The translations under genes were made by a program, and so were the position numbers. Of a stretch of 64,000 nt of DNA, positions 9,001-47,800 are shown one piece after another. This DNA comes from Bilabrum cf. latius (taxonomy: Eukaryota), in the NCBI GenBank assembly GCA_965178125.1, contig OZ237749.1, forward strand, positions 682,001 to 746,000. Reading direction: 5' to 3'. The notes under the pieces are model-generated. The model did no database searches. It saw nothing but the letters and a program-made list of their open reading frames with translations, and was not told where the DNA came from. Position 1 is the first letter of the stretch, and each line of letters starts with the position of its first letter.

Positions 9001-9502
9001 ACCGTCTCGGCACAGCTCTTACAGCTCCGTGGGCAGCATGGCGCCCCCTTCACCGACTGCTCGGAAGCACAGGAGATATATTGGCAGCGGGAGCCAGAAC
9101 TTTGGTGGGATCATGTCGGCTGCAAGTCGTAAGTCACTTGGTGGCCGCTTTAACAGCGGTTTTGTGGCAGAGGGTAGCAGCATGGGTAGTGGGCCGCAAG
9201 GGAGGGGAGACTTCGGGGCGGACGCACACCCCGCGCACCTGGAGGTTGTGCACGAGCAGCTAGACCCAGGGTCCTACTTTGGTGAGCTTTCGCTCCTGCT
9301 CGGAATCCGGCAGCCCGTCGGTGTGAGGGCCAAGACTCACTGCTCCCTCTTTGCGCTTTCCCGGGAGGAGCTCAAGGACCTCGTCGATCGCTTCCCGCTG
9401 TTCGGAAAGAGGGTTGAGCAGAGTATGAGAAGATTTCTGCGGTCGGTCGTGCGGGACCGAAGGCGACGACGCAAACTTGAGGAGGGTGGGCAAAGCGATT
9501 GA
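1..9502 (+). CDS. Two-repeat (2 x 6TM) cyclic-nucleotide-binding-domain K+ channel-like protein, 5'-partial, >3,130 aa; intron 376-476; needs TAG read as sense
   Basis: The frame is open from the window start. Splicing 376-476 (GTGAG...ACGCAG) restores S1 'HPNSALRITIDVILVILTLYSVMMVPYQLGF'. Track ORFs 461, 2084, 2423, 2954, 3194, 4007, 4241, 4631, 4949, 5435, 6251, 7049 and 9029 share one frame and are separated only by TAG (18 in total). The first TGA is at 9500-9502. There are two S4 R/K-x-x ladders, pores SVGPGD and TVGYGD, C-linkers, and CNBD motifs VFREEEQGRDVFFL...HFGD and VFREGEQPFDMFFL...YFGELSLL. Confidence 0.92.
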
Positions 9503-9768
9503 CGCTGAGGCTCTACCAATTCGGAATTGTTGTTGCTCTCTACAGGAACTAAACAACGAAGTTCGATTTCAAAATAACTTGATACATGGCATCCACGCAT
9601 GCAACAGCTGTTCTAGCAAGCCACATGTTTGCCGAATCCGATCCGGATTCCGGAATCTCCTAACGACCATGATTGTCCCAACCAACTGCATCTGTCTGAA
9701 GATCCGAATGGCTAACGCCAACCTAAAGCCAAACTCTGAGGAGCCAAACATCTCAACCGGAGCTTGCA

Positions 9769-12700
9769 TCAGACAGCAGTAGCGTTAGCGCCGTCTGGAC
9801 CCTTCGCGGGCTGTGCCCCCTGCTGCTGCTGCTTGCCAGTCGTGGTCTGACCAGTCCGTTCAGCAGAGGCCGGGTTGCCGTGCTGCACCGGCTTGCCCGT
9901 CGCCCCGCTCGTCTGCACACCACTGCCGATGCGAGCTGGGGGAGAGCAGCAGCACGGGCACGGCAAGAACACGTGCCACAGCCACTGCAAGCACGACATC
10001 GGCGCCTCTCCGAACAGCTCCCGGTGCGAGTTCGTCGCGTTCGCCATCGCGTACACCAGCATCAGGAAGAAGATGCACACGGACACCAGCGCGAACACCA
10101 GGCCCACATTGTGCCGCACCGTGTCGCTGGTACCGTCCACGATGCGCGTGGTGACGATACGCCCGTTCACGCACTGCTTGCCGCTGGGGATGCCCTGGCC
10201 CTGCCTGTCTGAGCGGTCGTCGGCCGAGCTGATGGTGTAGTCGGGGTTGCACTCCTGGCAGATGCCCTGCAGACACACGCCCTGCCACAGAATGGCGCGG
10301 GCGTAGCCGTCGCGAGGCACCTGCGACTGCGATAGCATGTGTCCCCTGCCGGTGGAGTTCCAGAAGCGGGCATCGCCGCAGAAGCCGTCGTTGGGAGTGT
10401 ACCTGTTGTCACCGTCGCCGCCGATCCGCGGGATGTTGACCACCTGGGTCTGGCTCAGACGAGACGTCAGACCGTACACGTTCACGCCCTAGGTCCTGCA
10501 CAGCTTGCCGAAGAACTGCCAGCCCGCTCCCTCCTTGTTCTGGCACGTGCCGTACGTCCGGTGGGACCAGTTGTCGCACACGTACTCTCCCTGGTCGTTC
10601 TAGCAAATGCCCATGTCCGTCTGGCAGTACTGCCCGTCCTCGCACATGCCGTCGTTGGTGCACTCGAGGCATCGCGTGCGCGGCTGCACGCGCTGGCCCA
10701 TCCTGGAGTCGTACGACGGCACGTCAGCGCAGATGGTGAAGCGGTGCTCGTCGTTGTTGTCGCTGGCGTCCTTGCGGTCTTCCGAGGGATGGTCCTTGTT
10801 GCGCACACAGTCGTCGTTGTGGATGCACTCCCCTCGCACGCTCTCATGCGACGCACGCACGGACATCTGCATGTAGTTGGCGTCGCACGTGCTGCCTCGG
10901 GTGACCGTGATCATGTACGTGCCCACCTCGGACATGCCCGTGCGGGCCGTGGGACGGCCGAACGGCTGGGTCAAGGCGCTGCGTGAGCCAAGGCTGCCGA
11001 CACCCGAGATGGAGTCCGACTCCGAGTAGCTGTCAACGAGGGCGCCGTATCGAGAGTGCGTGCCGGGGAAGGGCTGCACCTGTGTGGAGCCGTCATCCTG
11101 GAAAGGACGCACGTTCGTGCTCCGGTCCACGGATCGGAAGCGCACCTGCATGGCGTTGCGAGGAGGATGCTTGACGAAGTTCATGCCTCGGCCTGCGCCC
11201 AGCTGCACGTTGTCCACGATCACGGACAGGTTGTTGAAGAGGTCCCGCTCGTAGTGCACGAAGAAGATGGCCTCCCTGTCCGGGAACTCCCCGTTGTGGA
11301 TCTCTCGCTCGTCGATGGTGACGTTGTTGATGGGCTCGGACTCTCCAAACTCGCCGTCCTCGCGGAAGTCGTACAGCACAGGGTAGTGCTCCAGGCCCGT
11401 GATGGTGACGGTGAAGTCGATGAACACTCCCAGCGCGTACGGGTACTGTCCGTCGCTGCTTGGGAAGGCCACATCCTCGTCCTCGAACACCTCTCCGCCG
11501 GGCACCTGCACCTCCACACAGGCAGGGTACTGCGTGCCGGCTGAGTCATCGGCACCGCCGTCGTACTCCACGCGAGGCAGACGGAACCGAATCCGGCCCG
11601 CGGCATCGTAGTGGTACTTGGCCTCTTGGTCCTCCAGCGACGTGTACGTCTGCGAGCTCGTGGCAGGCTCATACCCGGGGATGCGCACCTGCCAGAAATC
11701 GCTGATCTCGTCGTTCTCGATGGCAGTCACATTGGGCAGAGGCATCACGCTGGGATCCGCCTCGATGGTGATCTCGATGGTCTTGGGGGGCAGGCCCATG
11801 GACGCGAAGTCTTCTCCGATGGGCACGCACACGGCCTGGCCTGGCCTCGTGTATCCGTTGATGGCCACGGTCTTGTTGGCCGTGAGGCGTGGCACGGAGT
11901 CCAGATAGATCTCGCCGTTGTCCTCACTGTTCACGTTGTACCCGATGCTACCCTCGCCGTACAGCTCGCTGTAACCGCCCTGATACGTGCCGTTGCGCGT
12001 GACCATGCGGGCGGCCAAGTGCCACTCGAAGCCGTCGTCGTCGAGACGCGCCACGTTGCGCATGTCGAAGACGATCTGGTACGTGCCCACACACCAGGAA
12101 TTGAGCTGCGATGGGAGGCCAAGACATGGGGCAAGCAGGCAGCATGGAGCTGAGGCGCGGCAAAGGGGATGGGGGCGGGGAGACTGAGGCTGGGTTGGCA
12201 GACACATCGCAGCATTCTGCAGGTGTGCCGTCTCACCTGCTTGGCGTGGCTGTGGATCGGAAGCTGCAGCACATCGTTGCCGTCTTCCTGATACGCCCGC
12301 ACCTCGACCGAGTTCGCTCCGAAGAAGTTGTTGAAGTCCTCCTCCTGAGAGGGCACAGCGTCGATGTCGCTGTAGTCCGTGGAGGGCGGCAGCACGAAGA
12401 ACTCGTCGATGGCATCCGTGGCAGATGGATTCCAATAGTCGGTTTGTCCGTTTGCGTTGAACAGGATGATCTGCAGCTGGGCGCTGTCTTGGTACGGGAG
12501 AAGATCGTTGTTGAGCGTGATGCTGAGGACGGATGAGTTCTCTCCTGCATCGCTGATTCCGCGCGCACACGTGAAGTTGGATGGGCCATAGGAAGGGAGG
12601 AGATCAGCGGCGGAGAGCTCAATGGATGAAACCTCTTCGCAATCGCTCCTAGTGAGGCCTGCGAAGGATGGGTAGCTGACCACTTGTCGAGCAGTGCGAG

Positions 12701-12938: not shown

Positions 12939-15900
12939 GGCCACAGCTTGTATTGCTGTTTGTGGGTCTTCAGTTGTGATTGTTGTTTGGTTGTTATCGT
13001 TTGCAAGTTCCATGCAATTCCGGTTAATGAACTGGACTGTTCGGACGGAAGCTTCCCATAGAAACGCCCAACAGAATAGAGCAAGAGTACGAAGAATCCA
13101 ACAGCTGCACATACACACAATATTTTCAGTTCACATAGTTGGATTGCAATGACTCGTTGCAATGGCATACCACTGGCAAGGTATGCATGGTCGCATGACT
13201 GCTGAATGGTCGCACTGCACAGGCCTTCAAGGCCGTTTTCTGGCGCATCAGCGCGTACGATTGCGCAGTAAGAGTAACAACATGGAGAGAGTGGAAAAAT
13301 CGATTCCGCTTCAGACACATAAACAATCAAGCCAAACCACATGTCCGGGAGCATCATTGCAGCTGCTGCCTCACACAGATGTCGCGTTGGCGCCGTCCTT
13401 AAAGCCCGGGCCACTGGCTGGAACAGGAGAGGACTGCCCACTTGGCTGCACATGAGCACTAGTAGTATCTCCAGTGCGCTCGGGGGTTGGTTCCCCATGC
13501 TGCACCGGCTTGCCCGTCGCCCCGCTCGTCTGCACTCCACTGCCGATGCGAGCTGGGGGAGAGCAGCAGCACGGGCACGGCAAGAACACGTGCCACAGCC
13601 ACTGCAAGCACGACATCGGCGCCTCTCCAAACAGCTCCCGGTGCGAGTTCGTCGCGTTCGCCATCGCGTACACCAGCATCAGGAAGAAGATGCACACGGA
13701 CACCAGCGCGAACACCAGGCCCACATTGTGCCGCACCGTGTCGCTGGTACCGTCCACGATGCGCGTGGTGACGATACGCCCGTTCACGCACTGCTTGCCG
13801 CTGGGGATGCCCTGGCCCTGCCTGTCTGAGCGGTCGTCGGCCGAGCTGATGGTGTAGTCCGGGTTGCACTCCTGGCAGATACCCTGCAGACACACGCCCT
13901 GCCACAGAATGGCGCGGGCGTAGCCGTCGCGAGGCACCTGCGACTGCGATAGCATGTGTCCCCTGCCGGTGGAGTTCCAGAAGCGGGCATCGCCGCAGAA
14001 GCCGTCGTTGGGAGTGTACCTGTTGTCACCGTCGCCGCCGATCCGCGGGATGTTGACCACCTGGGTCTGGCTCAGACGAGACGTCAGACCGTACACGTTC
14101 ACGCCCTAGGTCCTGCACAGCTTGCCGAAGAACTGCCAGCCCGCTCCCTCCTTGTTCTGGCACGTGCCGTACGTCCGGTGGGACCAGTTGTCGCACACGT
14201 ACTCTCCCTGGTCGTTCTAGCAAATGCCCATGTCCGTCTGGCAGTACTGCCCGTCCTCGCACATGCCGTCGTTGGTGCACTCGAGGCATCGCGTGCGCGG
14301 CTGCACGCGCTGGCCCATCCTGGAGTCGTACGACGGCACGTCAGCGCAGATGGTGAAGCGGTGCTCGTCGTTGTTGTCGCTGGCGTCCTTGCGGTCTTCC
14401 GAGGGATGGTCCTTGTTGCGCACACAGTCGTCGTTGTGGATGCACTCCCCTCGCACGCTCTCATGCGACGCACGCACGGACATCTGCATGTAGTTGGCGT
14501 CGCACGTGCTGCCTCGGGTGACCGTGATCATGTACGTGCCCACCTCGGACATGCCCGTGCGGGCCGTGGGACGGCCGAACGGCTGGGCTAAGGCGCTGCG
14601 CGAGCCAAGGCTGCCGACACCCGAGATGGAGTCCGACTCCGAGTAGCTGTCAACGAGGGCGCCGTATCGAGAGTGCGTGCCGGGGAAGGGCTGCACCTGT
14701 GTGGAGCCGTCATCCTGGAAAGGACGCACGTTCGTGCTCCGGTCCACGGATCGGAAGCGCACCTGCATGGCGTTGCGAGGAGGATGCTTGACGAAGTTCA
14801 TGCCTCGGCCTGCGCCCAGCTGCACGTTGTCCACGATCACGGACAGGTTGTTGAAGAGGTCCCGCTCGTAGTGCACGAAGAAGATGGCCTCCCTGTCCGG
14901 GAACTCCCCGTTGTGGATCTCTCGCTCGTCGATGGTGACGTTGTTGATGGGCTCGGACTCTCCAAACTCGCCGTCCTCGCGGAAGTCGTACAGCACAGGG
15001 TAGTGCTCCAGGCCCGTGATGGTGACGGTGAAGTCGATGAACACTCCCAGCGCGTACGGGTACTGTCCGTCGCTGCTTGGGAAGGCCACATCCTCGTCCT
15101 CGAACACCTCTCCGCCGGGCACCTGCACCTCCACACAGGCAGGGTACTGCGTGCCGGCTGAGTCATCGGCACCGCCGTCGTACTCCACGCGAGGCAGACG
15201 GAACCGAATCCGGCCCGCGGCATCGTAGTGGTACTTGGCCTCTTGGTCCTCCAGCGACGTGTACGTCTGCGAGCTCGTGGCAGGCTCATACCCGGGGATG
15301 CGCACCTGCCAGAAATCGCTGATCTCGTCGTTCTCGATGGCAGTCACATTGGGCAGAGGCATCACGCTGGGATCCGCCTCGATGGTGATCTCGATGGTCT
15401 TGGGGGGCAGGCCCATGGACGCGAAGTCTTCTCCGATGGGCACGCACACGGCCTGGCCTGGCCTCGTGTATCCGTTGATGGCCACGGTCTTGTTGGCCGT
15501 GAGGCGTGGCACGGAGTCCAGATAGATCTCGCCGTTGTCCTCACTGTTCACGTTGTACCCGATGCTACCCTCGCCGTACAGCTCGCTGTAACCGCCCTGA
15601 TACGTGCCGTTGCGCGTGACCATGCGGGCGGCCAAGTGCCACTCGAAGCCGTCGTCGTCGAGACGCGCCACGTTGCGCATGTCGAAGACGATCTGGTACG
15701 TGCCCACACACCAGGAATTGAGCTGCGATGGAAGGCCAAGACATGGGGCAAGCAGGCAGCATGGAGCTGAGGCGCGGCAAAGGGGATGGGGGCGGGGAGA
15801 CTGAGGCTGGGTTGGCAGACACATCGCAGCATTCTGCAGGTGTGCCGTCTCACCTGCTTGGCGTGGCTGTGGATCGGAAGCTGCAGCACATCGTTGCCGT

Positions 15901-16746: not shown

Positions 16747-17098
16747 ATGAGTGAATTGGGGCTTGTCCATGACTCGCTGGTAGCCAGTGACCGGTCTTTT
16801 TTGTAGATAATGAAATCTGCTGTGCAGCGCCTTGACAGCATCGTGGAGCAAACCGGTGAGTCTTGTACTTATGAAGTTATCGTACACCATTATGATTGGG
16901 GAAGGACGACCTGCATGGTCGCATGGAAGTCGTCGAATGCCTATGGTCGCAAGATTGGTTGAGCCGTTTTTGCTCCTGGCTGGTGCAGGCATTTTGGCGA
17001 CAGAGAAACTTGATGGACTTGAGCGAAAGTTGGAGAGGATAGAGCAGCTAATTTCTTCAGCGGAGCAGAGCACAAGCCAACCCAGAGCAGGTCGATGA
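16747..17098 (+). CDS. BRK1: BRK1/HSPC300-like small coiled-coil subunit of the SCAR/WAVE complex (72 aa); intron 16856-16988
   Basis: The spliced product is MSELGLVHDSLVASDRSFL(TAG)IMKSAVQRLDSIVEQTGILATEKLDGLERKLERIEQLISSAEQSTSQPRAGR-TGA. Its size and ungapped heptad register match my recollection of BRK1 (NREYIEIITSSIKKI...SRLATLNEKLTALERRI). It is absent from the ORF track in this form. The family call is by eye. Confidence 0.55.
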
Positions 17099-17406: not shown

Positions 17407-18128
17407 TCAGAAGCTCTCATAGACCGGATTGTCCGGCACGTAGCACACCATCCCGTCCATTTCCTTGGTCAACTTAACTTGGCAGCCCAACCTAGAGGTG
17501 ACTGCAAGATCCTCGGGAAATGGGTAGTCGTCCAGTCGCTCCTTCTCGGTGTCGGTGAGAGCGGGCATCGACTGCCACTTGTCCTGAGGGATGATGACAT
17601 GGCACCCGTGGCACATAGGCCCTACTCCGTACTTGGGCTCCCAAAAATCCTACTTCTTATGATACAGCGCATCCGGCGTGCCGCCTCCGCTGCAGGGGTT
17701 CTCGACCATATCCAGCTTGTGGTCGGCTGCCAACTCTGTGAGTGTCTATCCGACCCGCCCCGGTAGTCGCACACGCTTTCCAGCGTAGTCAACGAAGGTC
17801 ACATTGACACGAGTGTCTTTCACGTGAGCCTGGTCGACACCATCGAACTCTACCTTAATCCCAGCAATTGCGCGCTTTGAGCTTGAATGCAACAGCGCGC
17901 GGCTTCGGGCGCCGAGCAACGAGCTAAACTGATTTGCTGCAAATGATGGGCAGAGAGGAAACGCTTAAGCTATCCGAGATAGAGTGACAAGATAAACAGC
18001 GGTGAGCACACAATGGGAAGGGTGATCATGCAAGCCCCGCTTTCTACGCCGTCGCGATACATCACAGCGCATACATATTTCAACAGGAAGTTCTCACGTC
18101 TGCGCACCAGAGACTACAAAAATCGCAT
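17407..18128 (-). CDS. Mitochondrial adrenodoxin-fold ferredoxin, possibly the complex I-associated type (186 aa); intron 17937-18097
   Basis: Arg/Ser-rich presequence MRFL(TAG)[18 protein letters not shown]; then [20 protein letters not shown](TAG)TL, CHGCHV and [16 protein letters not shown]. Three in-frame TAG; ends in TGA. Confidence 0.88.
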
Positions 18129-21300: not shown

Positions 21301-21723
21301 TCTGGATTCCCCAACATGGCAGTGGTGCGGTGCGACGCCAAGGACCCGAACCAGCAGTTCATCTTCGATCTCACAGATAAGGCCACCCAGATCCAGCTCT
21401 AGAGCAACGCGTCGCTGTGCATGGATGCCACGGGCGGCTCGTCTGGCCCTGGCACCAACATCGAAGCGTACACGTGCAACGGCGGCAGCAACCAGATGTG
21501 GGTCGTGGACGAGCTCGGCCGCATCATCAATGGAGGGTTCACTTCCCCCAAGAGGTGCGCCGGGCCGTGTGACGGCCTCCCGTGGCAGTCCACCCCTCTT
21601 GATTCGCTGAGCGAGCAGCACCGCGAGTACGTGCTCGAGGGCCGCCAGAAGAAGATGCTGTCGTCTGGGGCTCGTCGCGAGCTCGAGCTGTTGCAGTCCG
21701 AGGAGCAGCAGCAGAAGCTCTGA
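18358..21723 (+). CDS. GALC: GH59 galactocerebrosidase-like secreted glycosidase with C-terminal ricin-B lectin domain (about 896 aa); introns 18589-18673, 18699-18793, 19053-19381, 19730-19895
   Basis: Motifs [32 protein letters not shown](TAG)[21 protein letters not shown] (acid/base Glu), [15 protein letters not shown] (nucleophile Glu) and MTADQPWSG, followed by QxW-type ricin repeats. Signal peptide starts at 18358; an upstream in-frame ATG at 18310 probably lies in a 5'UTR intron 18244-18343. Confidence 0.93.
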
Positions 21724-22440: not shown

Positions 22441-24885
22441 TCAATTGGACACCGTTGGCAAGGTGGCACTGCTCTCCACAGGTAATACGCCACTAGACAC
22501 AGTCGTTGTCGACACTGCGTTCGTTGCTGCAGCAGATGCTGCAACCGCCTGTTGCTCACCTGAGGCCGCGCCGCGTTTCCCTGCTATTGCGCTCTCGCCG
22601 GCAATTCCAGCGTTGCTCGCTCCAGTCCCGGGAGGCACTTGCCCTCCAAACGATGACGCTAGCCTAGCTGCATTGGCAGCCAGTTCCGCCGCGCTGGCTG
22701 GGACAGCCATGCCCGACAGCACACCATCGGCCGAGAAAGAGGAAGAGGAAGCAGCAAGGGCGCCAGATGCAGTTGCCGTGCCACGCGCCGCACGTGCCGC
22801 GGCTGCCGCGGCCAAAGCGGCAGCCGACTGTGGAGCAGCACGCGACTCGTCCACGGAGGGCAGCCCGCCGGCATTCAAAGGGCTCGTGTACTGCCCGCCA
22901 CCGGACGCTGCTGCTGCTGCTGCTGCTGCTCGCCCCAGTCCCGTCGTGAGAGGCAGCATGCTGCCGGCATTGGCCGCGGCTGACATGGCCGACACGGGCA
23001 GGCTCACATCGGCGGCAGTGGAAGCAGCATCGCTGGCCGGGGCCGGGTACAGGGCGCCCATTCCCGAAGATGAAGACCCAAAGCCCACTTTTGAGGACGC
23101 CATGGAGTGCGAGCCGCCTGGAAACGTGCCCATCGCAGACAGAGGCTGCTACTACAGAGGCTGCTGCTACTGCTACTGCTACTGCTACTGCTACTGCTGC
23201 TGCTGCTGCTGCGATGCCGCCGCCGACATCCCCTGCCCCAGTCCCTGTGGGCCCAGCCCAGTCCCCCCGAGGCTCCCTGTGGTCAAGGGGCCGAAGCCCA
23301 CGGAAAATCCGCCGAGATCACCGCTGATGCCAGCGGCGGCATCCATGGGGTTTAGCTGGCCCATGGCAAGACCGGCGTGCGGGTCCAGCCCGGCCTGGCT
23401 GATCTGGTCCATGGCCTTGTTCAGCCCACGGGGCTTGATCGCGCGAGCAGGGCCCCCACCTACTCCCGAGCTGCTGTACAGTGACAGCCTGCTCTGCGCC
23501 AGCAGCGCCCTGATCTGATCAGCCAGCTGGGACACGCCGTCCCTGTATTCCTCCCTGTGCACGTGCCTCGCGTGCCTCCTCAGGTTGCTGGGCGTGGTGA
23601 AGGCGTGCTTGCACAGGGGACACTCGTACCCTCGCCAGGACTTGTGCGCGCTCTGCACGTGCTGCCTCAGCTCGTCGTTGCGCTTGAACATGCGGCCGCA
23701 CCCCGGCTCAGGGCAGGGGAACTGCTGCGTCCCATGCTGCGCCTTGGCATGTCTCAGTAGGTTGCTCTTATTGCTAAACTGCTTCTTGCAGACCAAGCAT
23801 GAGAGGTTGGGGAGATCCACGATCGACTCCAGGGGCCCACGGACCACTGCTGCTGCCGAATCAACGGCCCTGCCCGTTGTCTTGCGGTTGCTGCTGCTGC
23901 TGGAGGAGGACGAGGACTTGCTGCGGCCGTTGTACGAGGACGAGGACGAGGCATACAAGGACCTGGAGCCTGCCCCTGCGAGGGCCGGCAGTCCCATGAT
24001 CATCCCGCCGCTGCCATCGCTCAGGGCCGATATGGGGTCCATGGCCTGCAGCCCCACACCCGCCGCAGCTGCCAGCCCAGCGTCCTGCCCGCCCATGGGG
24101 TCTGGCCCCGTGAGTCCAAAGGCGGAGGCAGGCAGGCCCATCCCGGCAGAGAAGTCATACCCACCGCTAGATTGCTGGTGCAATCCCTGAGAAGCGGACG
24201 CTAGCTGTCCCATCGTGGGCAGCACGCCCATGGGCTGCAGCATGCCCATCATCCCCGCGCTCATCCCAGCGCTCGCACCCATGCCCATGCCCCCCGACAC
24301 GCTCCCAGTCTGGGCCAACAGGGCTGCCAAGTCGGGATTCACCCCGGAGCCAGCTTGCAGCATGCCCAGGCCGTACTGAGAAGTGCCCCCACTCCCCCCT
24401 CCCCCTTCGCTCACCCCCAATGCCATCGACGCCACAGCTCCAGCCGCGCCCGAGCTAGCCTGGGCTGGCATCGACAAACCGTGCAAACCCGCAGACACGT
24501 GCAACTGATCGGTGCCACTAGTAGAATTCGAGCTGTTAGATGATGGCTGAATCCAACCGTTCGCGCTGGTGGGAGGCTCTTGCGATTGGCCGTACGAGCT
24601 TTGGAACGAGTTTGGGCCCTGACTTGAGCTGCTCGGCGATCCTTGGGATGCGACCATAGAACCAGCCGATTGCGCTCCAAACACCTGCTACAGCCCCGGC
24701 TATGAGCTGGGGGAGCCCAGCTGGTCGCCTCCAAGAGAGCCAAGCGGCGCAGAGTTTGTCGGAGCACCTGCCCCGGCGATGGGGCCTTGGAATGCCATCG
24801 AAGCAGCCCGTTGCTGCTAGCTCCCGTACTACGGCTGCTGCACGTTCGACATTGAGCTAGTTAATGCTATGGCGGCCTCCTACAT
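22441..24885 (-). CDS. C2H2 zinc-finger transcription factor with Gly/Ser/Ala/Gln-rich regions (about 814 aa; start codon uncertain)
   Basis: Three fingers: CLVCKKQFSNKSNLLRHAKAQH, CPEPGCGRMFKRNDELRQHVQSAH and CPLCKHAFTTPSNLRRHARHVH. Track ORFs 23191-24684 and 22441-23133 share a frame and are joined by a CAG/TAG tract. The frame stays open through TAGs to ATGs at 24798, 24852 and 24885; ends in TGA. Confidence 0.85.
23146..23211 (-). repeat. Coding trinucleotide repeat mixing CAG and TAG (polyglutamine tract)
   Basis: The minus strand reads (CAG)6 (TAG CAG)5 CAG CCT CTG TAG TAG CAG, in frame with the zinc-finger CDS. Confidence 0.95.
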
Positions 24886-25338: not shown

Positions 25339-25572
25339 ATGGCCCCGAGGGTAATTTCTGTGCATTGCATGAAATGCAGCACTAAACTGTGCTCGTACTT
25401 GAAGGGAGGGCGTGGTATGCTGGTCAAGACGTTCCTTCACAAGATCAAGCGCGACTACACTTTAGAGCGAGGTGTTTGCCCCAGCTGTGGCTCTACCTTT
25501 GCTCGTGCTGCCATCATCAAGAATAAAGAAGCCAATAAAATCATTGGAGGCAAAGTGTATACCAAAGGGTGA
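25339..25572 (+). CDS. Small basic zinc-ribbon protein (77 aa)
   Basis: MAPRVISVHCMKCSTKLCSYLKGGRGMLVKTFLHKIKRDYTLERGVCPSCGSTFARAAIIKNKEANKIIGGKVYTKG-TGA; two CxxC pairs; intronless. Confidence 0.75.
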   Translation: MAPRVISVHCMKCSTKLCSYLKGGRGMLVKTFLHKIKRDYTLERGVCPSCGSTFARAAIIKNKEANKIIGGKVYTKG

Positions 25573-29372: not shown

Positions 29373-30410
29373 TCAACCCCACCTGCTCTTCCTGCCGCCC
29401 TACCCACCCGTGGCACCGCCTGTGCCCGAGCCCATGCCTGCCCCACCTGCCGCCCCATGCCCGCCCGCAGACGAGGATGACGCTGCGTCCGGGTTCCAAT
29501 TCCCCTGCACGGGGAGCTGCAAGCTAGGCCCAGAGGAAGATGCGCTTTGGCCACTACCTCCCTGCCCCTGGCTACCAGGTGCTAAGCCGCTGCTACCGGC
29601 AGGTGCTCCTGCTCCCACGGCACCCCCCCTCGGGCCAGCATGAGCAGCGCCCCTGCCCACTGGCATGCCCATCCCGGCTGCCCCTCCCCACTGCGGAGCG
29701 CCAGACCCCTGGCCGGCAGGCAGTGACGGAGGGCGAGGGCCGCCGTGCATGCCCTGCTGCCCCATTGCTCCTGGTCGCGGGCCCCACCCCGCGGCGGGGG
29801 GACGGCCCCCCATCATGGGGGGCATGCCCCTAGGGGGGAATCCGCCGCCCATCCCCATACCCATGCCGCCCATCCCCATGCCGCCCATACCGCCCATACC
29901 GCCCATCTAGGGTCGCATAGGACCACCGAATCCTGGGCGAGGTCCACCAAAGGGTCCGGGCCTACCACCGCCGAGCTATACTTGCAGTCCCGGACCTCCA
30001 GGACCGCGTCGCATAATGCTGAAATCCCTGTCACCGTACCCAGCGCCTTCGGTACCTGCAGTCTTGCTCCTAATACCAGCCTATCGGAGGACACCCAGTC
30101 CTGTACTAACTTTCTTTCCTTTGCTTTGCATCTCTACCCGCCTAAACATGGGGGAGTGCTCCAGGATATCTGGAAACACCACGAAACGCACAGTAAATCC
30201 TGGAATCCAAACAGACTGCAAATGCTTCGTATTCCCATCTGGCTACGTGAGCAACACGTCGCGCATCCGAATATTCATGCAATCTTCGGCATACTCAACA
30301 AGGCCACGATATACACAATCATGCTTCGTTTCGACAGTCAGCACCATACCTTCGCCTTCGTGCATCAGCATAATGGGAATAGACACTCCTTTCTTTCCAG
30401 AAACAACCAT
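29373..30410 (-). CDS. SMD3: Divergent SmD3-like snRNP core protein with long Gly/Met/Pro-rich tail (345 aa)
   Basis: SIPIMLMHEGEGMVLTVETKHDCVYRGLVEYAEDCMNIRMRDV...VWIPGFTVRFVVFPDILEHSPMF follows the SmD3 pattern (PIKVLHEAEG...YRGKL.EAEDNMN...YIRGSKIRF...PDMLKNAPM). It is in frame with track ORF 29400-29906 through five TAG and ends GGRKSRWG-TGA. Confidence 0.82.
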
Positions 30411-33346: not shown

Positions 33347-35389
33347 ATGGCAGGCGCTGCCACGAAAGCTTTTCCTCCATTCGTGGGTAGGACGTTTCAC
33401 GAGCTGCGAAAAATGGTTGTAGAGAGGCGAACCGCCCTTCTGGACGTGATCGACGTTGACTTGTTAGGCAAGCCAATGAATTCGTGAGATTGAGGCACTT
33501 TGATGCTGTAAATTCGGTGATTCATAAGTTTTCTATGGTTCTTCGTTTCCGACCCGTTTCCAAGCTCGCACTCCGATCCCTCGTTCTTGGTTGCCGTGGT
33601 GGATCGCAGCGGGCACTTCGGCGACGTTTTCCAGGGCAAAGTGAAAGCTACCGGCCAGTAGGTTGCGGTGAAGAAGCTGAAGCGTTGCCATTTCACGCAT
33701 CCTGGCCGACTTGAGCGAGAAGCTCTGTATGAAGTGGCCGTCCTGCAGTACTTGAGAGACACCAAGCCAGCCTCGGCTTGCAAGAACATCTTACAGCTGG
33801 TGTCCTGTTGGGAACTCATTGACGTCGACGGCAACTTAACTTCGTGCATTGTTACTGAGTTTGCCCCGGGCGGAGACGTTATGGATGCGGTGATGGACTT
33901 GGGCGAGCAGGGAAAGCACTTTACCGAGCAGCTCGCTGCACGGTTCATGCGGGAGGCCGCGCAAGGCCTCGCTGCGACCCACGCCACGGGGGTTTTGCAC
34001 CGTGACATTAAACCTGACAACTTGCTGCTCTCTAGCAAGATCGGCACCGAGGGCTCCCGGGTAATCGTGTGCGACTACGGCCTGGCCAAGTGCTCCGGCA
34101 GCCGCATGGCTGGCATCGGCACCTTGCATTACACCCCCCCTGAGGTGCTGGACGCAGGCGACAGGGTCGACGGCGGCTGGACCGAGGCAGCTGATGCCTG
34201 GTCCCTGGGCTGCGTCGTGTACATCATGCTGGTTGGGCTCATGCCCTTCTACGGCGACGAGCGACAGCCGCGTATGGTGCAGGACGCGCAGACAAAAAAG
34301 GCCATAAGAGCGGGAAGCTTCTCCAGGACAGTCCACGCCTACGCCTCTTTGTCCAAGGGCGCCAAGGAAATCATCGAGGGCCTGCTCACCGTGGATCCAG
34401 CGAAGCGAATGACCCTCCCGCAGTTCCTAAAGCACCCCTGGGTGGCGGACTCGGCTGTCCCTGCACCCGGCCCCCTCACAGAGGCCACCAAGGGCATCCA
34501 CAAGATACACGCTCGCAGGAAGTTCAAGGCCGCCGCCCTCGCCGCCCTGTTCGGCTGCAGCATCAACCGGGTGGCACAGCTCAACGCCCTCGTACGCGCC
34601 ACCGGTAAGGTGTTCGACGCAGACGAGGTCAAGGCGGTGCAGTCCAGGCTCATGGCAAAGTCCTCCGACGGGCAGGTGGACGAGAAGCAGTTTGCGGAGG
34701 TGATGGCGGAATGCGGCTCCGAATTCACGGAGAAGAAGGCCGCCGCGATGTTCCGCGTCTTCGACGAGGACAACAGCGGGACCGTCAGCACCAGGGAATT
34801 CGTGGTGGGCCTGGCCATGCTCAAGTCGCACGGGCCCAGCGCCATCAAACTCTGCTTCGAGCTGCTGGACGCGGACAAGAGCGGGTCGCTGGACAAGGAC
34901 GAGCTGGGGGTGCTGATCCGAGCGGCTCACGAGGCAGTGGATGCCCACGCGCTGGACCGCTTCGAGGCGAAAGAAGAGCGGAGGGCAGCCGAGGCCTCCG
35001 CTACCGAGGGCAAGGCAACGCCCGCGGAGGCCCATGGGGTGGAGACGCACCACGACCGTGAGGACGAAGAGAGGCTTGCAACCTTCAAGAACATCGCGAG
35101 CGCGATCGATGCACTTGACGTGGACCACAGCGGCAAGGTGAGCTTCGAGGAGTTCGAGGCAGGGGTGCAGCGGGAGCCGCTGCTGATCGACCTCTTCCTG
35201 CACCGGGGGATCCGTGCTCTCACCCACGATACTGGTGCAAGCGAAGACGCAGAGGCCGTCACTGCTGGGGAGCACGGCGGGGAGGCTGCTGCGGGAGGGG
35301 CGGGGGACGCCGTGGCCAAGGCAGGAGGCAGCGGCACTGCTGTGGCCGCGGCCGGCAAGTCGTCTGGGAAGGAATGCACCGTCTCGTGA
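33347..35389 (+). CDS. Ca2+-regulated Ser/Thr kinase with CaM-binding-like helix and three EF hands (CCaMK/CDPK-like, 638 aa); intron 33484-33609
   Basis: SGHFGDVF, TGQ(TAG)VAVKK, HRDIKPDNLL, DYG, GTLHYTPPE, DAWSLG; then ARRKFKAAALAA; EF loops DEDNSGTVSTRE, DADKSGSLDKDE and DVDHSGKVSFEE; C-terminus CTVS-TGA. Confidence 0.92.
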
Positions 35390-35624: not shown

Positions 35625-38600
35625 TCACTGGCCACCAGATCCTGCTCCGCTAGAGGGGCCACGCGACAGCGGCGCAGCCCCAGATGCAGCCGAGGACCCG
35701 AACGGGTCGTCAACAAACGGGTCGCCGTCCTCTCCCGAAGACGATTTGCCGGACAACATAGCCAGCGCTGGCTTGAATAGGAACCTCCAGGAATTCTACC
35801 TGACAGATTCGAGCGGAGACTTGCCTCTCGCCAGATCCACCACCGCGATGGCAGACAGCACCCCGGCAGATACCACGACCACTGCACCAGTCGTGGCGAT
35901 CGCCTTCGACACGGCGGGCTGCCAGTCCTTCCGAACGAGCGGCATGCTCCCCGCCGCCTGAAGCCAGGCGCTCGGCGAGACCCACCTAGACAGGGTGCCC
36001 ACAGCCGCTCCTGCACCCTCGCCGGCCTCTTCTGCCTTGGCATCCACCACGGCCTGACCCATAGACTCCATTTCCTTCACGGCGGCGGGCAGGTCCGTCT
36101 GCTTCTCCTCTTTGGAAAGAGTCTGTATTGTGAGCTTGGACGAGAAGTTCGAAGAGTACCCGATCAGGACGGGACCACCAGCGCGCTTCGGGCTGCTACT
36201 GCCCCCACTCATGGCACCGGTTATCATCTTGCTTGACTGCTTCTACCCGGCGGTTCGTGATCGCTTGGCAGGGGCCTCTTGGATCGTCTCGAGGGCCTGA
36301 GAGCCTTGCGACAGCGGCTTGATTCCGATCTGCTTGGCCACCTGGTCCTGCAGGTGCGCTGGCAAGTCCCCGAACCTTGCGCGACGGGCAGGGCCGCCGC
36401 CTTGGGGCTGCAGCTGAAGCACGCGGTTGAGGTCCTGAGGGGCCCACCGCGAGGCCCCGCCTGAAGCAGGAGGGAGAACCAGGCTATCGCCCCGTCCACC
36501 AACGCCTGCCCCTTCCGCCGTATCGCCCGCAGCGCCACTGTTCTCCTCCCCATCGTCGTCCTCCTCCTCGTCTTGGCCGGCCGCCGCCCGCTCGGCCTTC
36601 TCTCGCTCGGCCTGCTGACGTGCCATGGCGAGCAACGCCTCGTTCTCTCCGTTTCCCACTCCTTCGTCCTCATCGTCTTCTTCCTCAGATTCTTCCTCTT
36701 CCTCCGATTCGGACTCCTCCTCTTCCTCCGATTCCTCCTCGGAGTCATCGTCCGTGTCTTCCATGTCATTGCCATCGTAGTCATCATCGCCATACTCGTA
36801 TGCCTTTGGCTCTAGGCTTGTTGGCAAGGCGCTGGTGCCCGACGGCTCCGCGGCCTTCGCGTCCTTGCCATCGGCGCCAGCCTCCTCGTCACTCTTAGCC
36901 TCCACTCCGGCATACCCCGTGGATGAAGCTGGCGGAGCAGCTGCTTCCACTGCACCAGCAGATGAAGCGGCGCCGCCAGTGGCAGGCACGGGATCCCCAT
37001 TCTGGGCAGCCCGGATCACCTCGTCCACCTCCATCTCGTTCAAAATGTCGTCCAATCCGTCGTCATCGTCCTCTTCCTGCTGCTTGCTGGCTCCACCCGA
37101 AGCAAGGGGTCCGTCCCCAACGGGACCAGATGAATCTTCCGTTTCTTCCGTTTCTGCGACCTTTGCTGGCTGCTACTAGTCCGGTCCCGCCTCTGTCTTG
37201 CCGTCTGTGGCGGCGGCGACAGGAGAATCAGCAGCGCCAGCTGGCTAGGAGACAGTGCCAATTTCTTTGGCATCACTGGGAGAGGTGGCCGGCGCCTGCA
37301 GCAGCCGCCTCAAGTCGATCTGCAGCTTTGAGCCGCAGATGGGATGGTACCAATCCCCGTGCTCCTTGACAACCTGCACGGCCACTTCGCGGCCGCCGTC
37401 GGCGTTACCGGCCAGCAGCGCCAGCAGCGGCCTGGCGTACTTCATGCGCCCGAAAGACACCAGGAAGTCACGCGCCTGCTCGATCGCGCCGGGGAGGCCT
37501 GACAGCATCGCTACGGTGGTCCACGCCATGCGCAGCTCGCAATTGCCAGTCGTGCTCAGGCCTGACTCTCGGTCGATCTTTGCTAGCACGTCGGCGCTGA
37601 TGCGCTGGGGGGGCTCCATGGACGCAAGCTCTGCGTGCATGGGTGATGACAAGAACAAAACAGTTTTCAAAGATGACCGAAGCGGTGGCGCATCACTCAG
37701 AGTATATGCCAAGCAAAGCAGCAACAGTAAGCAAGGTTCACACATACGCAAGCAAACCGCTCCGAGCGTGGAGAGAACAGTCCTCAGGTGGGCCTAATAT
37801 ATTAGAATCAGCGTGGCCCGAAAGATGTGTTCATTGGGATCAATGGAAAGAAGTATCCTCATTGGAAAGTCCTCCCCAGCTCGCAGCAGCGACACACACA
37901 TAAGGCAGGCAGCATTGCAAGGGGAGCGATCGAAGATCTCACGTTTAGCACTCTCCGCCAGATGTTTAGCGAAAGCGATGAGTAGGTGCGCGTCGTTGGC
38001 CCACGAGGCGAGGAGCCCTTCCTTTACGGCGGAAGGGTTCGTAATGTAGTCCCAAGCGAGTTTCTCGCAAGCCGTGCGGACACTACCATCGTGGGACACC
38101 GGCTCGGGCGGGTTGCCTTCCGTGTAGTACCAGGCGTCCCAGTCCACGATGCTGTCCATGTCGACGGTTTCGCCGCCGTCGTTTGCAGGCTCGGCAAAGT
38201 AGTCCGTGATGTGCTTCTGGAAGTCGAACCTCGAGATGCTCTTGCCCATGTGGTCCAGGGTGAACGACTTGAGCCACGGCTCGAACCTCGCTTTGCCACC
38301 TAGCTTCTCCTGGAAAAAGCAGAGGAAGTGGTACCCCTTCTCATAGGGCACGACGGAGAAGCTCTCGTCAGGGTCCACGCCTGACATGTCCGGCACGAGC
38401 TTGGTGTACTTGGAGTGGCCGCGGCTTGCCAACGTCTCGAGCTCTTCTGCCAGTTTGCCCGCTCCATCGAAAGAATCGAACGCGAAGAATGCGTCACCCT
38501 TGATGATCGAATCCTTGTGGGTGTGCTTTTCCCTTACGGCAGCCACGACCTTTCTCTGCCCCATCATGGTGAAGCCCTCGTTCAGCCAAAAGTCCTCCCA

Positions 38601-43100: not shown

Positions 43101-43379
43101 GCCCGAGGCGCTGGTGGCGAAATGGGTGGGCCAAGCCCACTGATCCACGGGATACTGAGACAGCATGGGTCCATGAATACCAACGCACTGGCAAGAGAGA
43201 TGATTGCCGAAGACTATAGCTCCCGTAGCAGTGACGCAGACGCGCAGGGCAGTCAAAGGGAGGCTGACAGTCGCGCTGACAGTCGGCCGGGTGGCTCTGT
43301 AGCAAGCGCCTCGAGCAGGCATATCTTGGCAACAGTTGACGCTCTGCTCGAGGAGATTTCGTCTGATTCAAGTAATTGA
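40185..43379 (+). CDS. Uncharacterised protein with N-terminal coiled coil and long disordered Ser/Gln/Pro-rich region (about 1,064 aa)
   Basis: Track ORFs 40485, 41022, 41511, 42159 and 42525 are one frame with about 21 TAG and no TAA/TGA between the ATG at 40185 and the TGA at 43377-43379. Heptads include LRAALVASEAQSESLQQELIGTRSQLRRAE. Confidence 0.75.
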
Positions 43380-43460
43380 TAGATAACATATTGTAGCTTA
43401 ATTGAAGTCCGTGACCAAAGCCTATTCAGTCAGTAGACCCGACAACCACCTGCGACCAAC

Positions 43461-44705
43461 ATGGCCCAGCTAGAGCAGCTTGCGAACATTTCAAACTTGA
43501 AGCTAGTCGGCATGGAGCATATGGACTATGATGACACTGAAGAACGAAACGCTTTGGTTCTAGCGCAGAAAGCAAGGATTAAGGCCCTTGAAGCAATCGT
43601 TCGGGTGCAGCGCAGACTTGGCTAGCGCTCCCAAAACAGCAATGGCATCGTACAAACGGACGGTGTTCGCTCCTAGATTAGAGCATCCCAATTGGGTGAT
43701 TCTTCTTTTCTATCACCTTCAAGGCGAGATCCGGTTGCTGAAGACTTGCGAGCAACGCAGCCTGTTCGCGGAGTTGCCGTTGACCGCGATGAAGAAACGG
43801 CACTGGGTGCTGATCGCACCGATGCCAAGGACTCGCTTATCAAAGCCCTGCAAAGACAGTTAGTGTCCAAAGAACGCCAGGCAGCCGACGACGAAACGCA
43901 TCGACTCAGACTGGTCCGGCGACTAGCGGAATCAGAGCAAAAACTTGCTTTAGCCCTGTCGAAAGTAGCTGAGCAAGATAACGAAGCTACTGCAGAAAAT
44001 ATGAAATAGGGAGCATAGCTTGAAAGGGCAAGATAGCAGTATCGACGCGACAACGAGGAGCTTGAGCAGCAGCTCGAGCTATACCGCGCTAGGACCCGTC
44101 GCCTCGAGCGAGAGCTTGAGGATGCACGCCATGAAGCAGCACAGGAGCTGGATGCTGCTACATCTGCACACTAGGCTGTTGAGCGTGAATTACGGCTGGC
44201 CATCGAGAGAGCAGCCGCACGGAGCGACCAGGATCGTCAAGAGGCGATTCGCCTCCGGGGCGAGGCAAGTGCTCGTGAGAAACGCGCGGCCGATGATGTC
44301 AGAGTCCTCAGAGAAGAGTGGTCCCTTGTGGAAGCAGCATCCAGGGACGAAGCTGCTCGATGGAAGGCAGAAGCCTTGAGGGCCAGAAAAGTCGCCTCGA
44401 AACTTCGTGCAGAGGTGCGGAGGCTTCGAGGCGGGGGCGTGCAGGAGGCCGAGCGGTTCAGGGCAGACGTTGGCAAAGGGGTTTCGGCTGCGCTCGAGGA
44501 TACCTGGCCCTCGCACAGAGAGGGCGGTGGAAGGAAGGAGGCCACGAAGCGGAGCGGCTCAACTCAAGGCCGCGGGGGAGGCAATGACGCTTGGGTGCGA
44601 CGGCATGTGGGCAAGGGCTGGGTAGGAGCGGACGGGTTCGGTGCCTCCGTGGGATCGGCGCGGCGGTTTGAAACGGGATTCAACGAGTCGCCAGCATGGA
44701 GCTGA
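43461..44705 (+). CDS. Uncharacterised coiled-coil protein (414 aa)
   Basis: One frame from the ATG at 43461 through six TAG (covering track ORFs 43692 and 44328) to a TGA; E/R/A/L-rich heptads such as NEELEQQLELYRARTRRLERELEDAR. Confidence 0.75.
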
Positions 44706-44864
44706 GCAATCGAGATGACTTGGAATACAAAGAGAGAAGCATCAATGAGCAGCATAAGCAGTTCTAGTCTATTTCAATAGGATTCATTTTTCGCAAGCCG
44801 ATTGATCGCACCGAGCCCTCGTAGCTCCTCCACCGCAGCAAACAAAGCCTGGCACAAATCCCTG

Positions 44865-47800
44865 TCACCCATCGAATCCAAACAACTCCTCGACGCCCTC
44901 GACCACCCTGTCCACCTTGGTGGCCAAGTCGGTGCCCAGGAAGTAGAGCCTTCCATCCGCGGTACCCACCTGCAGGTGGTGCTCGCCTGGCGTGAACGCG
45001 AGCGCGGTGACCGGCTGTGGAAACCCAACCGGTTTCTTGCCCTCGGTGTTGCGGAGTGCTTGCACTGTTTCCATATCGATGGTCCCATCCACATCAAGAT
45101 TGGGCAGAGCTCCACCAAGCGGCCCCAGCGTAGCAATGACTTTCATCTCCCAGATGTCTACCAATCGGATGCGCGGATGTTCCTCCTCGACGGCGATCGC
45201 CAAGGTCGAACCGTCTTCGCTCCAGCACGAGGCAAGAATTGAAAGGCTATCGCGAAAGCCAAGGATCTTGAGGCTTGGGCTTGCACCAGCAGCAACTCCA
45301 TCAAGCTTGAAGGCGTACAGGTGATGGTTCTCGTCGCTATACGCCGCTACAACTCCAGCTGGAGATACGCTGCACCAATGCAGCGCGTTCAAAGACTCCG
45401 GCAGCTGGCGTGTATTCCTGTGAATGGCTGGATCACTCGCTTGCGCACTCGGTGCTTGAGCCCCGGCACCGGACGCTGGTCCTGGGGTGGCATCGCCTGC
45501 GCTGACCTCGGGCGAAGCTGCCTGGTCACCAGCTGATTTAGATTTTTCAGATTCTTCCGACTCGAAAATACCTGGCGCAGGCGCGACGCGAGATTCCACC
45601 CACTCGGGGACAATGGATCTGATGAGGCGACCCGTCGAGAGCGAGTGCAGGAGCACGCTACCATCTGCAGAGCAGGAAGCCACCACGTCAAAGTGGGCAC
45701 AGGCATGCACGCAAGTAATTGTGTCTTCGTGGCCCGATAGAACAAGCCTGGGTTGTGGCGAGATGCGCCCCTGCCACATCCGCCAGACTCTCACGGTTCC
45801 GTCACTCGACCCAGTCGTCACGACGTCCTCGCCAGACCAGCCGTCCTTTGCGACAGGAGTGACGACGGGCAGCTGCGGGGCGCTGCGGAACTGGGCAGCT
45901 GCAAGGTCGAGTCGTTCCGCGGTGCGCTGCAGGAGGTCTGGATTCACAGTGGGCATGCTCCACTGGTCTCTTGGGTCCAGCAGCTTTGCCATGGCTCTCC
46001 TGACAGCATCGCTGCTGCTGACGTCGGTTACCGCGGCCAAATGCGTCCCCGCGTGGCCTTCCGTCGAGTTCAAACCATCCTCGAGATCGCTTTCGAGATC
46101 CAAACCGGCTGCAAGGGCGGCAGTGGCAGCTGCCTGTACCGTAATGCGACTCGGATGCAGCAATGCACCTGACAACAAGCCGCCAGCGTTCACCGCAGCG
46201 GCTGCAACGTCACCACAGGCACGCGTGCTGCCGAGATGCGGGTCAGCTTGCAGGCTACTGACGATGGAACGAGCTGCGGAGGTACTTGGTGCCCTATGTA
46301 TTGAGGCCACTGACCCTACCTCTGCGGCTGGGACTGGACGGGGACAGACGTGAAGGCAAGTGACGGGCCCATCGTGCCCCGTTACCACGCAGACCGATGG
46401 CATCCCCTCTGCGATGGCTGATACTCTGAAACTATGATCCCAGTGCATGCACGACAGCAAGAATTGCCCGTCAGAAGAGCAAGCAACCATCCAGGGCCTA
46501 GTCCAGCTCGCGGCAGATCGAGAGCCGCCTGCGCCAGCCATCGTGTCCGCGAGTGTTGATGCTTCTGCCCCAGACAAAAGAGGCAGCCATGCGGCCTTGC
46601 GCATGCCATCCGCAACAGCGGCTTGCCTCTTGTCGTGTAGAGCTGCTGCACTCAGGGGGGTCGGGCGATTGCCGGCAGTTGCGGTATTCTGCTACGAGCT
46701 AGCATGGAACAAGCTGGCCGCGTCGTTGTTCGCCCAGCCTCTTAGCTTCCGTCTGACGAACGACCACCAATCTGGGCCCTGATTGCTTGCGATTGACAAA
46801 TTCATCTTATTTCCCAGAGGGTTCCGCCTTGTTCTGCCCAAACACTCGAGTGCTTTCGTTCTAGCGACGAACGGGACTCCCACCACAGAACCGGAGCCCA
46901 TCGTGGTGCGTCCGCCCGCCGCAAATGCAGCATTGACCAAATGCTTCTTCTGCGTTTCTTCTTGCTGAGCACTGCCCGCAGCAGTGCTTGTAGCTCCAGA
47001 CCCGGCCTGATCGGAGCTCATTGACACCTGCTCTGCGGTCCCGCTGACCTTGACGCTGCCGCTCATGCCCAAGATTGACATAAACGCACCAACTACACCC
47101 TTTCCGTCTCCCGAAGGCGCTGCCTTTACGTCATAGGAAGCACCAGACCCAAACTGGGCGAAACTATTCCCGAAGTTTTGCAGCATTCTAATGGCAGAGC
47201 GTGGATCAAGCGATGGATGGTCTGGGCTGAGCTCCTGCAGTCGGGGAGCTGCCAGAAAAGCCTTGATCGGGGCTTGGATTCGTCGAGGTGGCTTGCCGAT
47301 CGCGCCTGCGTGCCTTGCAAGGAAGAGAGCTGACGCAGCCTCCCTCAGGTCACAGTCCAGCATGAGCTTCTGCAGCCTCCGGAAGCTCATGGAAGCAGCC
47401 TGGTCATTGCTGTCTCTGTCTCTGCCGCTTGCGCCACCCGACGCTTGCGCTTTGGCCTTGTGGACAGAACCTCTTTTTCTGTGGTGCCTGCTCGTTCGCG
47501 CCAATGTTCCCTATGATGTTGTCCAGTTGTGAATGCCGACGGAACGATTCCCGTCCACGGTTATCAAGCCAGGCTGCTCTCCAGAAATAAAAAACAACCC
47601 AATAATCCGCTGCTAGTGGATCTGAATGCCCAGCTGCCGCCCGATTACTTCTTGCTCGGCTTCAGAGGGAGCAATCCTGCCAACATCACCCTCGCCATCG
47701 CTCGACATACCCGAGTGCCCGCTGGCCTCGCCCCCCTGTTGCGACACCCCGCCAATCCTGTTTCGGAACTCCTTGGCTCTGGGAGCTCCATTCTCTCGCT

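Follow-up and report, generated by a model that had tools for sequence, protein, structure and literature searches.

A probable UAG = glutamine nuclear code with UGA-dominated termination in a stramenopile genome

Only a few lineages are known to have a nuclear code in which UAG and UAA differ in meaning. Iotanema spirale (Fornicata; Panek et al. 2017) reads UAG as glutamine and ends 104 of 119 genes with UAA (PMC5304391). Two phyllopharyngean ciliates with table 15, Hartmannula sinica and Trochilia petrani (McGowan et al. 2024), use UAA for 86.9-98.3% of stops, and Protocruzia tuzeti is cited as a further case in which only UAG is glutamine (PMC11687900). The rhizarian exLh reads UAG as leucine, with UAA at 56 of 71 stops and Ala at Leu69 of the release factor eRF1 (PMC5304391). 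In these earlier UAG-only codes UAA makes up 79-98% of stops (PMC5304391, PMC11687900), and the cases named in the Discussion of PMC11687900 are exLh, Iotanema, Scotinosphaera, Protocruzia and the phyllopharyngeans, with no stramenopile among them. Codes in which UAA and UAG (UAR) both mean glutamine (table 6) occur in many ciliates, hexamitins, ulvophytes and Amoeboaphelidium (PMC11687900). Here we consider how TAG, TAA and TGA are used in a 64,000-nucleotide stretch of DNA (G000:C15:682001-746000, hereafter the window) and in the 48.6-Mb, 111-contig, intron-bearing genome G000 to which it belongs. A first-pass annotation of the window had proposed that TAA is either a rare stop or a nearly abandoned codon, possibly in a state intermediate between the standard and the UAR = Gln codes.

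We conclude that the nuclear code is very probably of the table-15 type, with UAG = Gln and with UAA and UGA as stops. It resembles the code of Iotanema in these assignments, in the absence of dual meanings, and in having a change in the eRF1 N-domain of the kind proposed there to weaken UAG recognition. It differs in stop usage, with UAA ending 31 of 175 genes here (Fisher p = 2e-34), in eRF1, where Iotanema has T32G and the GTS motif here is intact, in the tRNA(CUA), only predicted there and found as a gene here, and in belonging to an unrelated lineage. With the phyllopharyngeans it shares the restriction of the glutamine meaning to UAG and the lack of UAG depletion near stops (here, over the last 200 codons); there, however, UAA is argued to be locked as the stop (PMC11687900), whereas its share here is ~18%, and the suppressor tRNA went undetected in Hartmannula and Trochilia. 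In exLh, as here, UAG and UAA are uncoupled and eRF1 is substituted at Leu69 (by Gln here), but UAG means leucine and UAA dominates the stops. The UAR = Gln codes are alike in UAG = Gln and in UGA as the main stop, and unlike in that UAA is still a stop here and no tRNA(UUA) was found.

UAG as glutamine

The reading of TAG as glutamine, already made in the first-pass annotation, is borne out by conserved columns and by codon swaps. Among 14 G3 motifs in the fetched GTPases, seven have CAA or CAG, six have TAG and one has Ser, so that TAG encodes 6 of 13 DTAGQ glutamines, and in a PDB alignment the Rab31 structure 2fg5 has Q opposite TAG. The first of two in-frame TAGs in the eRF1 gene falls in a column with Q in 108 of 110 homologues, and the eRF1 of a metagenomic relative (L189, 82% nucleotide identity) has TAG where G000 has CAG. 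Opposite TAG in paralogous host open reading frames (ORFs), Gln is the commonest residue (48 cases: CAG 43, CAA 5). The TAG share of Gln codons is 7% in genes with high G+C at third codon positions (GC3) and 17% in low-GC3 genes, and TAG terminates none of the 45 homology-anchored genes described below. In the window, TAG-bearing exons are matched by contigs of runs X1 and X2 with 0 other letters, which means that no editing has removed the TAGs there. The X1 and X2 contigs omit the GT..AG introns of the window; the run contigs used for these splicing and TAG checks do not reveal transcript ends.

A nuclear tRNA gene with a CUA anticodon lies at G000:C23:907607-907679 (-) (L010:1501-1573) and scores 69.8 bits. 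The genome-wide anticodon pattern that we used gave eight matches, namely one Gln(UUG), two Gln(CUG), the CUA tRNA, two mitochondrial tRNAs and two that are not tRNAs. A pattern match at L122 was likewise rejected as not a tRNA. No tRNA(UUA) appeared in 2 + 2 + 8 pattern matches or in 22 typed nuclear tRNA loci, in searches that set lower bounds.

Three points weigh against this account of UAG. The second TAG of eRF1, at the Leu69-equivalent site, stands in a column with Leu in 105 of 110 homologues and taken alone is compatible with leucine. The tRNA(CUA) has a Tyr-like acceptor stem (C1-G72, but with G73), with identities of 50/73 to tRNA-Tyr and 47/75 to Gln-UUG. The tRNA searches themselves set lower bounds, with 63 of 780 candidates scored and patterns that miss intron-containing tRNAs. 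On the first two points one could argue that TAG encodes another residue, whether Tyr through a Tyr-derived tRNA, Leu as in exLh, or Gln and Tyr ambiguously. Such a meaning is highly improbable, given that six TAGs occupy the catalytic Gln of small GTPases, that polyQ runs interleave TAG with CAA and CAG, that TAG and CAG replace one another, and that Tyr is outside the 12 commonest residues opposite TAG. Moreover, Gln also occupies the Leu69-equivalent column in P0031, the homologue nearest to this eRF1, and the tRNA(CUA) combines a short variable loop with a D arm like that of Gln(UUG). The tRNA is possibly Tyr-derived or chimeric in sequence, and we infer that it is charged with glutamine.

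UAA as a minority stop and the excess of UGA

TAA is in all likelihood an ordinary, less-used stop in this genome. As the first-pass annotation had suggested, stops were tabulated at homology-anchored C-termini, using the 3' ends of those 34 Ras-family and 19 UBC matches (from 65 and 37) that span the domain end; 31 and 13 of these ran to a stop, and 9 had none inside the fetched stretch. With eRF1 included, TAA accounts for 9 of 45 anchored ends outside the window (95% confidence interval 11-34%): six Ras-family ends (against 25 TGA, n = 31), two UBC ends (against 11 TGA, n = 13) and the eRF1 gene itself. All six Ras-family TAAs directly follow a prenylation motif (CVVS twice, CGC, CC twice and CMIL), as do 19 of the Ras-family TGAs. 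In the eRF1 gene (G000:C35) the TAA comes directly after an acidic tail, beyond whose last column none of the 110 homologues in the alignment continues, and the L189 eRF1 gene stops with TGA at this position. Paralogue ends, compared in 58 pairs of mostly near-identical copies, showed no TAA/TGA swap.

Predicted genes were surveyed with a self-trained gene finder run on the window and on a further 800 kb (1.6% of the genome, in 16 blocks of 50 kb), using a stiffer, earlier model; later iterations broke up TAG-rich genes. Unfiltered, TAA makes up 47 of 222 stops. Filtered genes had a last exon of at least 300 nt, with coding signal before the stop and none after it. Blocks C9, C12 and C33 were left out of the host tally because they contain virophage and retroelement DNA, and the filtered set went from 152 to 142 genes, and to 130 without the window. 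Of these 130, 22 end in TAA, which gives 31/175 (17.7%) when pooled with the anchored ends. In a model-light test, TAA is the stop of 52 among 237 long frames, and the median coding score after the codon is -5.2 for TAA (n = 24) and -5.5 for TGA (n = 108), compared with +6.9 for TAG (n = 799) and +7.0 for CAA. When 70 TAA-ending frames, many of them antisense or viral, were taken from 330 long frames (217 TGA-ending frames being left out) and compared with Pfam, families were found for 12, including a PRAI match that ends 5 residues before the TAA.

TAA is never sense. The 148 kinase matches contain 85 TAG, 2 TAA and 3 TGA, and all five non-TAG codons lie in introns; the lone TAAs within Ras, UBC and rhodopsin matches are also intronic, bringing the in-match total to 5 of 5. 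For in-match TGA, 4 of 4 examined are intronic, with four more in the Ras and UBC tables and one in the rhodopsin table outside that count. No in-frame TAA was found at conserved Gln columns of real genes among the family matches checked. In the window, 17 long coding frames or exons comprise 17,491 codons, with 0 TAA, 150 TAG, 190 CAA and 589 CAG; a TAA used like CAA relative to CAG would be expected in frame ~48 times as a Gln codon, and its lack exceeds chance. The first-pass observation that TAG is frequent in frame and TAA unseen thus held, as did its conclusion that TAA is not a Gln codon. Context-dependent use is absent as well, with TAG only internal and TAA and TGA only terminal, unlike in Condylostoma and Blastocrithidia.

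An ordinary table 6, with UGA as the sole stop and TAA simply a rare Gln codon, might be read from the L086 region (G000:C14:423000-433000), where two TAAs in long frames stand at positions at which neighbouring repeat units have Gln codons. We rejected this candidate, because the region is a 125-253-bp satellite in which every one of the six frames contains stops. The intronic position of every TAA within a family match and the TAAs directly after prenylation motifs also speak against table 6, to which we give next to no credence. Satellites in and beside L086 (125-128, 253 and 326 bp) are large and resemble long ORFs.

The window by itself would suggest that TAA is nearly abandoned or unassigned, on the way to UAR = Gln, since none of its 16 independent stops and none of its 17,491 codons is TAA. 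This suggestion is scarcely credible in the face of the 9 anchored and 22 predicted genes that end in TAA elsewhere, the synonymous TAA/TGA swap with L189 and the failure to find a tRNA(UUA). Of the two first-pass alternatives, the rare stop survives as a minority stop and the nearly abandoned codon does not; nor is the intermediate state supported.

How unusual, then, is the all-TGA window? Independent stops number 16 because those at 9769 and 13371 end copies of one gene. With TAA at 17.7%, the probability of no TAA in 16 is 0.044, Fisher's test against the pooled sample gives p = 0.08, and ~34 of 759 windows genome-wide are expected to show such a run. The run is therefore a mild sampling fluctuation on an 82:18 background, and its excess over chance is not convincing. 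G+C bias and a small sample, which the first-pass annotation had named as an alternative, are its main explanation. A sampled block of C1 has 0 TAA in 11 stops called by the gene finder.

Composition also predicts most of the minority share. A-ending Gln, Glu and Lys codons in the last 100 codons give a null of 21.6% TAA (pooled) or 24.9% (per gene), and 3' flanks give 25.5% (filtered) or 29.5% (unfiltered). TAA thus stops genes at largely the expected rate, near the 22-25% predicted by A-ending codons and 3' flanks, which tells against abandonment. The comparison with 3' flank composition called for in the first-pass annotation has nevertheless left a slight deficit, and this deficit and some related counts do not favour so simple a picture. 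The pooled 31/175 lies below the nulls with p = 0.23 (21.6%), 0.029 (24.9%), 0.019 (25.5%) and 0.0005 (29.5%). C follows TAA in 1 of 32 cases and TGA in 30 of 155 (p = 0.03), and a second stop lies at most 3 codons on in 6 of 23 TAA and 12 of 119 TGA cases (p = 0.08), both tests being post hoc and uncorrected. The tally of 130 genes, furthermore, consists of a self-trained finder's filtered predictions on 1.6% of the genome. We attribute most of the TGA dominance to G+C pressure, a cause that would follow from the G+C-rich genome; TGA excess is common in G+C-rich genomes generally (PMC9348620).

The structure of eRF1 bears on both codons. Its gene has four exons with GT..AG introns and carries two in-frame TAGs, so that eRF1 synthesis itself needs the altered code. 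The protein (motif names and numbering after section 9 of PMC5304391) retains GTS, NIKS, E55, S70 and YxCxxxF, has TAVNIKS for TASNIKS (Val for Ser), is altered at four residues before GTS and at K130, and sits on a long branch (0.75). The Leu69-equivalent site is Gln, encoded by TAG, in a column of L 105, Q 3 and N 2; Gln at this site is not diagnostic, since 3 of the 110 homologues, Yarrowia included, have it. In yeast, the eRF1 change L69A makes each of the three stops leakier, UAG slightly more so than the others (PMC4381064). The loss of UAA termination expected of a UGA-restricted eRF1, as in UAR = Gln ciliates, was not seen, since TAA is the stop of the eRF1 gene and of six genes for prenylated GTPases.

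We propose that the CUA-anticodon tRNA reads UAG and, as it could not wobble onto UAA under the pairing rules in PMC5304391, would leave UAG and UAA uncoupled. Gln at the Leu69 site and Val in TASNIKS probably weaken UAG recognition by eRF1. The tRNA would outcompete an eRF1 weakened in this way, with UAA and UGA remaining as stops; TGA would then dominate chiefly through G+C pressure, TAA<->TGA being the only synonymous stop swap left.

A variant of this scheme keeps the same code but makes eRF1 UGA-biased, so that UAA is less efficient, selection favours TGA and the genome is poised for UAA reassignment. The deficit of TAA (p 0.02-0.03 for two of the three filtered nulls), the avoidance of C after TAA, the more frequent backup stops behind it, the long eRF1 branch with its changes at L69, in TASNIKS and upstream of GTS, and the effect of yeast L69A on all three stops can all be read in this way. 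So can one AT-rich type of the endogenous virophages described below (G+C 0.34-0.43), where the TAA stops, 3 in 12 ORFs, fall short of the 61% given by the trinucleotide background (p = 0.015). In a second virophage type, however, TAA ends 10 of 14 ORFs (p = 1.0 against 68.5%), and the viral ORFs taken together have it at 15 of 29 ends (background 65%, p = 0.17). High-GC3 genes still have TAA at 9 of 41 stops, TAA ends the eRF1 gene and also the six GTPase genes, whose prenylated products are intolerant of read-through at the C-terminus, TGA excess is general in G+C-rich genomes, and the supporting tests are post hoc. We therefore regard a UGA-biased eRF1 as unlikely, and a slight weakening of UAA as a terminator as similarly doubtful.

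Genes of the window and their ends

The claim that every terminator in the window is TGA was confirmed at all 17 coordinates, nine on the + strand and eight on the - strand (TCA on +). Of the 17 long frames or exons, 15 run to a stop, and all 15 stops are TGA. A cyclic-nucleotide-gated channel-like gene (Ion_trans, cNMP_binding; 17 in-frame TAG in 521-9502) ends at 9500..9502 (+). It is followed by tandem duplicates (9769-12911 and 13371-16540, -; 99.2% identical over 2,805 nt) of a gene for a cysteine-rich single-pass membrane protein without a Pfam family, with stops at 9769..9771 (-, copy 1) and 13371..13373 (-, copy 2, dependent on copy 1). The TGA at 17096..17098 (+), after a tiny intron-containing frame with no homology anchor, is the weakest of the 17. 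A gene with 2 TAG that ends at 17407..17409 (-) has no Pfam match at 1e-4 and is presumably ferredoxin-like. Pfam domain matches identify the gene ending at 21721..21723 (+) as a GH59 galactocerebrosidase with a ricin-B lectin domain, and at 22441..22443 (-) ends a C2H2 zinc-finger gene with 12 TAG, whose polyQ run mixes TAG with CAA and CAG.

Two convergent genes follow, a 77-aa ORF (25339-25572; stop at 25570..25572, +) of no family and a Gcd10p/TRM6 gene (family match, 5 TAG; stop at 25991..25993, -). A single X1 contig, 25329-28005, covers both, which suggests that their 3' ends overlap; a contig over two genes shows no single transcript. Ribosomal protein S13 (uS15) stops at 29033..29035 (+) and is homology-anchored, the Ribosomal_S15 model reaching 77/81 at 6 residues before the stop. 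Family matches assign an Sm/LSM-domain gene ending at 29373..29375 (-) and a CDPK-like kinase with EF hands ending at 35387..35389 (+); between them, V-ATPase subunit H ends at 33147..33149 (+) in a last exon reached through a GT..AG joint (32758-32927). The leukotriene-A4-hydrolase-like aminopeptidase (LTA4H) gene stops at 35625..35627 (-), its 5 last-exon TAGs are unchanged in spliced contigs, and the LTA4H exon shares 95% identity with protein P0121.

An ORF with 21 TAG ends at 43377..43379 (+). A gene-finder hint that this stop lies inside an intron was dropped, as an unspliced contig with 0 other letters covers 40229-43327 and the next gene has its own in-frame ATG at 43461; that gene, seen as a frame, is a coiled-coil-like ORF (43461-44705, 6 TAG) with its stop at 44703..44705 (+). 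The BEACH/WD40 gene (family match) stops at 44865..44867 (-), and its frame of 6,377 codons (44865..63998, -) is open only if TAG is read through, with 71 TAG, 0 TAA and 0 internal TGA. The sole TAA stop called by the gene finder in the window (61843-62145, +) is antisense within this BEACH frame and was not counted as a gene.

Contigs of runs X4 and X9 are ~92-98% identical to the exons of window 25001-45000 with the same splicing, and by this measure come from a related strain or species. No stop-codon variants were seen among 40 of ~800 variant rows examined. Elsewhere in the assembly, the small-subunit rRNA at G000:C95:6099-7900 (L006) is 78-83% identical to the C12 array (L007), both being eukaryotic, and C95 may represent a second organism.

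Lineage, virophages and meaning of the code

In the eRF1 tree, G000 groups with Bicosoecida sp. CB-2014 (support 97/100, midpoint root, 34 rows; 0.996 in a FastTree of 111 rows), and the LTA4H match cluster includes Cafeteria roenbergensis proteins. Among 11 rhodopsin matches in the genome, L271 (G000:C12:87345-87797) agrees by eye with Bilabrum sp. B1ChR2 at 148 of 151 residues and L275 (G000:C8:100912-101329) with B1ChR1 at 129 of 131. The best matches of eRF1 exon 3, LTA4H and mitochondrial nad5 did not by themselves point to a lineage. We take the organism, a bacteria-eating flagellate, to be Bilabrum or a close neighbour of it (Bicosoecida, Stramenopiles). The two channelrhodopsins were described by Vierock et al. 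(2022) under an assumed standard code, and according to the supplement some B1ChR2 alleles contain "premature stop codons", located at two variable sites (PMC9733931); the stops may be TAG/CAG variants, with TAG again meaning glutamine.

A metagenome contig, L231, encodes a divergent eRF1 of the same bicosoecid-containing clade, in which it is nested next to the standard-looking L225 and P0031. This eRF1 gene contains two TAGs in frame and stops with TGA, and its product reads TASQIKS where TASNIKS is usual; its source is possibly a second recoded lineage, to judge from this one gene. The mitochondrial genome (G000:C111; L009, L012, L014, L019) has frames with TGA = Trp, a UCA tRNA and long frames that end in TAA, and is insulated from the nuclear code change; the closest relatives of its nad5 are 100, 93 and 81% identical.

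AT-rich virophage-like stretches lie at L072-L073 (G000:C9:431000-447000), L079-L082 (C12) and L109-L111 (C33). Their genes encode Sputnik-type major and minor capsid proteins, polB-like and DUF5906 helicase-like proteins, an ATPase, an rve integrase and DUF285, and the endogenous elements are of at least two types. Forty-six long virophage ORFs, which we de-duplicated by hand to 29 for the viral tests above, contain 322 TAG, 468 CAA and 105 CAG, and TAA and TGA each terminate 23 of the 46; one capsid frame of 590 codons has 15 TAG, and a minor-capsid copy in C12 is broken by a TAA. The virophages are adapted to the UAG = Gln code of their host. The search used found no relatives of the capsid in IMG/VR, and we found no literature report of a recoded virophage; all confirmed giant-virus isolates are from standard-code hosts (PMC13524828). 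Tyrosine-recombinase-like frames also occur at L040:6887-7819, L070:1-2029 and L081:2502-3434, with Phage_integrase matches for L070 and L081, and we take them to belong, probably, to DIRS/Ngaro-type retroelements.

Our literature search, with most subscription journals outside its coverage, found no report of a UAG = Gln code in stramenopiles. The parts consulted of PMC10553269, PMC10089648, PMC11412368, PMC9733931, PMC12153298, PMC12152300, PMC13768787 and bioRxiv 2022.07.02.498568 and 2020.04.15.042127 give no such code for this group. The novelty of the code is uncertain, and table 15 may already have been applied in the annotation of this genome.

A more far-reaching combination can be put forward only as a long shot: that this is the first stramenopile nuclear variant code and the first code to reassign UAG alone without UAA becoming fixed as the main stop, with an eRF1 that has drifted to UGA, a weaker UAA, and a Gln-charged tRNA with a Tyr acceptor stem. 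If it were true, the lineage would represent a stage, still alive today, from which UAR = Gln could be attained at little cost, and the virophages, and by implication their giant virus, would already be co-adapted.

The contiguous genome supplies both the CUA tRNA and eRF1, parts of the machinery that earlier papers could only predict. Its UGA-dominated termination departs from the pattern in which UAA takes over, and so provides a test of the locked-UAA argument of PMC11687900. In practical terms, annotation under the standard code cuts proteins short, and the channelrhodopsin study may have dropped valid alleles. Endogenous virophages that read TAG as sense are a case of a virus adapted to a recoded eukaryotic host. 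What is of value here is a stramenopile code with UAG = Gln in which UGA is the main terminator, rather than an abandonment of TAA.

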